Positions 49,230-49,656 of a stretch of 64,000 nucleotides of DNA are shown piece by piece (the stretch's first letter is position 1; each line of letters starts with the position of its first letter). Both the position numbers and the translations under genes were made by a program. The DNA is taken from assembly GCF_003334405.1 (NCBI RefSeq), contig NZ_QOWM01000002.1; one strand, written 5' to 3'. The notes below the pieces were generated by a model. The model was given only the letters and a program-made list of their open reading frames with translations. It was not told where the DNA came from and made no database searches. Origin of the DNA: Escherichia coli. GTDB taxonomy: Bacteria > Pseudomonadota > Gammaproteobacteria > Enterobacterales > Enterobacteriaceae.

Positions 49230-49370
49230 TGCTGTTGTCTGCTCCTGGTAAATGCTTTTTCCTGCACTATGACACAATTTTGTGTCAGGTTGCATATACC
49301 GAAGCCGTCGGCGGGTAACATTTGTATCCGTGGTTAAAAGCGCAGCTTAAAAGATCAGGGATTTGCGCTA

Positions 49371-49601
49371 ATGCATTTCGCTCAGCGAGTTCGCGCCCTG
49401 GTTGTGTTGAATGGCGTGGCGTTATTGCCTCAATTTGCCTGTAAACAGGGGCTTGCGAACGGTGAACTGGTGCGCCTGTTTGCACCGTGGAGCGGCATAC
49501 CCAGACCGTTGTATGCTTTATTTGCGGGGCGAAAGGGGATGCCTGCCATTGCGCGATATTTTATGGATGAGTTAACCACGCGGCTTGCCAACGGGGTCTG
49601 A
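49371..49601 (+). pseudogene. yqfE: LysR-family regulator C-terminal fragment (yqfE-type remnant)
   Basis: 76-aa ORF resembling only the C-terminal substrate-binding region of a LysR regulator; no HTH domain and no room for one upstream. Confidence 0.55.
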
Positions 49602-49656
49602 ATCGCTTTTTTTGTATATAATGCGTGTGAAATTTCATACCACAGGCGAAACGATC

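Follow-up and report, generated by a model that had tools for sequence, protein, structure and literature searches.

The 76-codon open reading frame (ORF) between argP and rpiA in the window, a 64,000-nucleotide stretch of Escherichia coli DNA, is the already annotated K-12 pseudogene yqfE, and as such a case of ordinary gene decay and no new element. We consider it very probable that yqfE is a non-functional deletion scar, in which the tail of a LysR-type regulator gene became joined to the tail of an azoreductase-like gene (azoR) on the opposite strand. The regulator reached this locus as part of an inserted island, and in Escherichia at least three separate deletions have since removed it.

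Identity of the ORF between argP and rpiA

The window is E. coli K-12-like: over 49230-49660 it matches TG1 and further strains with 100% identity. [quoted passage not shown] Both direct flanks of the scar, argP on the left and rpiA on the right, were assigned from ORF calls and the annotation in related records. The spacer between them (49230-49656, 427 bp) is the entire range that the first-pass annotation had singled out. The flanking proteins hardly vary: ArgP is identical in 15 of the 17 fetched E. coli records that include argP, with variants in strains E09, MFDS1022581 and WB61, the first two sharing one, and RpiA is identical across all fetched E. coli records.

The sole sizeable plus-strand ORF in this spacer lies at 49371-49601. 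Exactly this ORF is annotated in MG1655 as the pseudogene yqfE (b2915; NC_000913.3, 3059381-3059611, 231 nt), and its coordinates relative to rpiA and argP are the same, so that the two are one object. The PGAP label in other strains is either "LysR substrate-binding domain-containing protein" or "hypothetical protein". A Pfam scan aligned residues 15-72 of the product with model positions 151-208 of 209 of PF03466 (E = 7e-7), and the helix-turn-helix domain (PF00126, HTH_1) was absent from the 76 residues. Using the intact 298-residue orthologue as tblastn query, residues 236-298 were recovered at 49410-49598 with 100% identity (E = 4e-44), a match that chance cannot account for. The first-pass annotation had described the ORF as a C-terminal LysR-like segment only, and both searches bear this out. 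The description holds for codons 14-76; the first 13 codons are not derived from LysR. The same annotation was also right that a DNA-binding domain is missing and that there is no space for one upstream, since the start codons of argP and of the ORF are 141 bp apart. What is left of the protein thus descends from a LysR gene, lacks HTH_1 and retains only the last quarter of the effector-binding domain; these data show that the yqfE product cannot act as a regulator.

When the 76 residues were used as query in a word-indexed protein search, the matches were confined to short Escherichia and Shigella products (43-110 amino acids) and one 54-residue partial sequence labelled Enterobacter cloacae complex. 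A short protein conserved at this length across genera, which would have spoken against decay, was not among them.

The LysR remnant proper, comprising codons 236-298 and the stop codon, occupies 49409-49601 on the plus strand, as delimited by tblastn, blastn and the PF03466 tail. Its DNA is 98.4-99.4% identical to the intact genes of strains 1504D004 and EF5-18-41 (blastn), and it shares 64-71% identity with the Citrobacter and Salmonella orthologues (tblastn). The idea that the regulator gene is complete and merely frameshifted, with its N-terminal parts in other frames of 49230-49660, is refuted: tblastn with the full-length E. coli, Citrobacter and Salmonella orthologues, run as the first-pass annotation had proposed, found residues 236-298 and nothing of residues 1-235 in any of the six frames of the spacer (all other hits had E above 0.3, and none with the E. 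coli orthologue was better than 0.7), and the 427-bp spacer compares with about 700 bp that would be needed.

Directly upstream of the LysR remnant, on the minus strand, we found a second remnant at 49330-49408. It encodes residues 182-207 of the 209 residues of an FMN-dependent NADH-azoreductase-like protein and has lost the stop codon (tblastn from 49407 to 49330, 81% protein identity, E = 2.5e-12; 87-91% DNA identity). The deletion junction is at 49408/49409, where the two remnants meet. The ATG of yqfE (49371) lies inside the antisense azoR remnant, which also supplies codons 1-13 (MHFAQRVRALVVL), and hence the ORF is a chance fusion that arose from the deletion. The first-pass annotation had suspected a decayed regulator left after a rearrangement. 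The decay is confirmed by an intact 298-residue gene at the same locus in relatives and agrees with the pseudogene call in MG1655; the rearrangement can now be specified as an internal deletion, of which the start of the ORF is itself a by-product.

The island, its intact regulator and the deletions

Intact counterparts of the remnant are still found at this locus, and in one class of the E. coli records recovered by DNA search the matching gene is labelled a full-length LysR regulator. DNA searches of 5426 complete E. coli genomes, on which all population counts are based, revealed the 298-residue LysR gene between argP and rpiA in 248 of them (about 4.6%; LysR 5' part present, gene intact or nearly so). 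Comparison with other genera, which had also been proposed in the first-pass annotation, located the intact gene at the same position in Citrobacter portucalensis (azoR plus LysR) and in one Pseudocitrobacter genome. In E. coli 1504D004 and EF5-18-41 the 298-codon gene ends 56 bp upstream of rpiA and is accompanied by divergent genes for FMN-dependent NADH-azoreductase-like, BhsA/DUF1471 and ferric-reductase/ferredoxin-reductase-like proteins. At least 80% of this four-gene island is present in 233 of the 5426 genomes. The intact regulator (WP_000568123.1 in EF5-18-41; WP_024189814.1 in 1504D004) agrees with the window completely or almost completely in its last 63 residues and in the 56 bp that separate it from rpiA. 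Unlike the window ORF, however, the intact gene has 298 codons, an HTH_1 domain (PF00126), a full LysR_substrate domain and a divergent partner operon.

The intact orthologue is nearest to the AphB/CrgA/YafC/AaeR group, of which the window keeps only a 63-residue tail. Its NCBIfam hits (PRK14997, YafC, AaeR) all remained below the curated cut-offs, and NCBIfam holds no equivalog for it. The best PDB matches, 3szp/3t1b and 3hhg, are listed as LysR-family regulators; we take them to be AphB and CrgA, respectively.

In certain strains decay also affects the island itself: the ferric-reductase-like gene has broken up into three overlapping ORFs in 1504D004 (record L001, 905-2228) and is interrupted by IS1 in N4220121 (record L101, 1071-3173). 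In Salmonella enterica (record L008, 3594-6915) the same four-gene module occupies a different chromosomal site that is not beside rpiA, near ornithine-decarboxylase (OKR_DC) and nucleoside-symporter genes, which we read as speC and nupG from their Pfam domains. Its presence at another site in Salmonella indicates that the module moves as a unit.

The rpiA locus was fetched from 80 other Enterobacteriaceae species. In 78 of them argP and rpiA are divergent neighbors whose start codons lie 112-244 bp apart, and neither a LysR nor an azoR gene intervenes. The two exceptions are a contig labelled E. coli SCPM-O-B-8794 (NZ_JAATUR010000026.1, hereafter L014) and the Pseudocitrobacter genome, which carries LysR, DUF1471 and part of the reductase. 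When island-free and island-bearing loci are aligned, homology resumes at a -10-like box on the rpiA side and at CTGCACTATGACACAA on the argP side. The island therefore separates the core elements of two promoters that lie back to back. A scar-free E. coli was not found: all 5426 complete genomes carry either the island or a scar.

On the argP side, the ancestral promoter-proximal region (minus strand, 49230-49282) contains CTGCACTATGACACAA and shows no difference from island-bearing E. coli as far as 49282 (blastn, 100% identity). CTGCACTATGACACAA beside argP is kept in alignments of Salmonella, Citrobacter, Enterobacter, Klebsiella and Kluyvera. An imperfect palindrome with arms of 15 nt each (TGCACTATGACACAA / TTGTGTCAGGTTGCA) at 49263-49294 overlaps the apparent extended -10 of argP (TGTCATAGT, minus strand). 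The left arm is kept in several genera and the right arm falls on the island boundary; the palindrome may be a regulator binding site. On the minus strand, an in-frame ATG at 49295 precedes the annotated argP start by 66 nt and would give a 319-residue product reaching into the scar. All records annotate the 297-residue form, and the extension is probably not used. An Rfam scan of 48900-50000 (E ≤ 1) returned no RNA family. A Pho box in the scar was considered and dropped, because PhoB control of argP/iciA, reported earlier, is disputed by ChIP-seq (PMC10294691).

Between this region and the azoR remnant lie 47 nt (49283-49329, minus strand) that align only with L014 and correspond to the 3' flank of the lost azoreductase-like gene in a two-gene type of island. 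In L014, the counterpart of this segment is located between argP and an azoR-like pseudogene, and the four-gene island, Salmonella and Citrobacter gave no match to 49283-49351. From the alignment with L014 it follows that the K-12 scar derives from the two-gene (azoR plus LysR) version of the island. Judged by the coordinates in C. portucalensis, about 1.35 kb were lost, and the scar lacks the divergent promoter region of the island genes.

From these comparisons the following course of events can be proposed. An island with a LysR-type regulator gene and a divergent azoreductase-like gene would have inserted between the -10 boxes of argP and rpiA in an Escherichia ancestor; some versions of it would have carried the additional BhsA/DUF1471 and ferric-reductase-like genes. 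In the lineage to most E. coli, a single internal deletion would then have taken azoR codons 1 to about 181, the promoter region shared by both island genes and LysR codons 1-235, that is, the whole DNA-binding domain and most of the effector-binding domain. It would have left 26 azoR codons on the minus strand fused to 63 LysR codons on the plus strand, and an ATG that happened to lie in the antisense azoR remnant would have opened the 76-codon ORF.

All K-12-type alleles share one junction and therefore trace back to one deletion event. A second, independent deletion is seen in L014, where azoR residues 44-207 with three in-frame stop codons and only the last 25 LysR codons remain. L014 is just 91.5-94.7% identical to K-12 in argP, rpiA, serA and scpA, and thus belongs to a separate Escherichia lineage despite its label. 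A third deletion, in strain WB61, started from the four-gene island and fused 45 bp of the 3' end of the reductase gene to LysR at about codon 210.

Erosion of the K-12-type scar has continued. A further deletion of 45 bp (15 codons, in frame) is present in 1599 of the 5426 genomes (29%). An allele in which the ATG is changed to TTG and codon 5 from CAG to the stop codon TAG is carried by at least 418 genomes (80 nt matched exactly), including O157:H7 and O104:H4; 736 genomes, the 418 included, lie within 1-4 mismatches of it. By subtraction, roughly 3,500 genomes, about two thirds, retain the K-12-type 76-codon frame. Frameshifted ORF products were found in Shigella sonnei and other strains, and E09 has extra deletions in the scar. 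In summary, yqfE displays the features of a gene remnant: an intact homologue exists at the same locus, the native start, promoter and essential domains are gone, and further disabling changes segregate.

Sequence variation and coding function

A functional product would have to be a 76-residue micro-protein, for example an effector-binding fragment that interferes or partners with other LysR-type regulators. Several features could be read in this way. The frame is open in most genomes, the ATG is preceded at 9 nt by a Shine-Dalgarno-like AGGGA, and the commonest secondary deletion, that of 45 bp, is in frame. Furthermore, the LysR-derived part has a pN/pS of 0.13 in nine alleles, with 15 of 22 segregating sites at third codon positions, which alone resembles purifying selection. 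We nevertheless rejected this ratio as proof of a functional peptide. About 33% of the synonymous sites in the LysR part segregate versus about 4% of the non-synonymous sites, and the adjoining non-LysR scar reaches 6.5%. Selection acting in place cannot lift synonymous diversity above that of the neighboring neutral scar, although an influx of alleles shaped while the gene still worked can do so, and the non-synonymous diversity is near that of the non-coding scar. In the nine-strain sample, the ArgP and RpiA proteins were invariant, and the ORF product showed five replacements, all in scar alleles.

We ascribe the codon-position bias to variation imported from intact alleles. Apart from the synonymous excess, six polymorphic sites of the LysR remnant are also found in intact alleles, and divergence is mosaic: between E2348/69 and the B2 strain N1420 there are 7 differences in the 193 nt of the LysR part, 1 in the other 126 nt of the scar and none in rpiA. 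On recent A/B1 branches we counted about 4-5 non-synonymous and 4 synonymous changes, a ratio near 1:1 that is compatible with neutrality. For these four reasons we do not read the ratio as selection on the peptide; import is a plausible though unproven reading of the codon-position bias.

A mosaic allele was also seen among the intact genes. Up to position 702, the intact LysR gene of strain APEC37 (record L102, 1601-2497) shows 39 differences in 704 nt (5.5%) from the EF5-18-41 allele (record L004), eight of them within the final 60 nt. Past the scar junction its sequence matches the K-12 scar at 100%. Such a pattern suggests that scar and island alleles have recombined, the breakpoint being close to the junction.

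The structure of the ORF and its fate in the population also count against a micro-protein. Its start codon and first 13 residues are antisense azoR and were made by the deletion, the gene's own promoter was deleted, and the product covers only the last 58 of 209 domain positions. Of the 63 homologous residues, 15 are missing in 29% of the genomes, and start loss combined with the codon 5 stop is found in the at least 418 genomes mentioned above. Finally, yqfE is among the genes removed in the reduced-genome strain DGF-298, whose deletion list is the only place where our literature search found the gene named (PMC10652928); a search for b2915 gave unrelated matches only. We therefore consider a functional yqfE peptide very improbable.

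The scar and the rpiA promoter

If the ORF has no coding function, its DNA could still be needed. The first-pass annotation had suggested that what remains of the gene may now act as promoter region for rpiA, and this suggestion stands in part. The presumed -10 box of rpiA, TATAAT at 49617-49622 (plus strand), is ancestral and lies outside the ORF. It is invariant in 12 aligned sequences from eight genera, with or without the island, and is followed by GCG in 10 of the 12 and by ACG in the island alleles of C. portucalensis and Pseudocitrobacter. Hove-Jensen and Maigaard, in 1993, reportedly mapped the 5' end of the rpiA transcript to about 30 bp upstream of the ATG. Directly upstream of the -10 box, the 72 nt at 49545-49616 (plus strand) are island DNA, consisting of the last 57 nt of the LysR remnant and 15 further nt, and form a candidate upstream half of the rpiA promoter. 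The part of the suggestion that survives concerns this segment, which does lie upstream of the -10 box and is invariant in alleles that lack an ERIC (enterobacterial repetitive intergenic consensus) repeat. We infer, with partial support from these data, that the last approximately 70 nt of the scar have been the upstream part of the rpiA promoter since the island arrived. The promoter arrangement is the same where the gene is intact, and hence the remnant did not gain a new role.

It can further be argued that the remnant is kept as functional cis DNA, the last approximately 70 nt being required for rpiA as a -35/UP element or activator site and the left part of the scar serving argP. Such a requirement is compatible with a non-functional scar as far as coding function is concerned, and differs from it on whether the DNA is needed. 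The right edge of the island lies just 5' of the invariant TATAAT, so that everything upstream of the -10 box is island DNA. Among eight K-12-type strains, 12.5% of the sites segregate in 49409-49544, compared to 0% in 49545-49656, 1-2% in rpiA and 2-4% in argP. Fifteen E. coli alleles without ERIC, intact and scar and from different backgrounds, share these 72 nt without a change; the segment is altered in six of the eight alleles in which an ERIC repeat has displaced it. In addition, none of the three independent deletions reaches into the final 75 nt of the LysR gene.

On the other hand, a -35 hexamer is not recognizable at 16-18 bp, and a promoter and terminator scan of 49150-49750 returned nothing, not even for rpiA, and is hence uninformative. 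An ERIC repeat just upstream of the -10 box shifts the segment by 127-270 bp in about 66 of the 5426 genomes (~1%) with rpiA intact, so this separation is tolerated. Island-free species carry unrelated sequence upstream of the -10 box. Against the more distant L014 sequence, divergence in the final 75 nt of the remnant is 9.3%, much as elsewhere in the scar, and a strong statistical case cannot be built on three deletion end-points. Moreover, rpiA itself is low in diversity, and the invariance could therefore stem from a recent haplotype sweep; the data for 49545-49656 fit promoter constraint and such a sweep equally. On balance, we treat a requirement for this DNA as a tentative idea that we lean against.

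The ERIC insertions occurred at TATA/TA, equivalent to 49620/49621 of the window, and the end of the element rebuilds TATAAT. Forms of 127 bp and of about 268 bp were observed, in scar, 45-bp-deleted and intact-gene backgrounds (record L002, 1888-2160; L005, 1475-1601; L007, about 1545-1665).

Returning to the deletion scar, the most likely reason for its persistence is its position between two needed promoters, a view that the data support in part. A combined role is conceivable and in our view rather doubtful. In it, selection would maintain the last approximately 70 nt as upstream rpiA promoter DNA, which would account for the end-points of the three deletions, and the 193-nt LysR remnant would act as a homology arm for exchange between scar and island alleles, as the APEC37 allele may illustrate, through which a full regulator could be regained.

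For annotation, our results mean that yqfE is better kept as a pseudogene than named a LysR substrate-binding domain-containing protein, that its start codon is a deletion artefact, and that a second, unannotated azoreductase-like remnant lies on the opposite strand. The database entry may not yet cover the azoR remnant, the chimeric start, the occurrence of an intact allele in 4.6% of E. coli or the separate deletion events. Beyond annotation the importance is little. The locus does provide a tidy example of an island that landed precisely between the core promoters of two divergent genes and was then worn down by separate deletions, so that a single species now holds intact as well as scar alleles. 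If promoter constraint on the end of the scar is true, it would be a small and clean case of coding DNA reused as promoter DNA.
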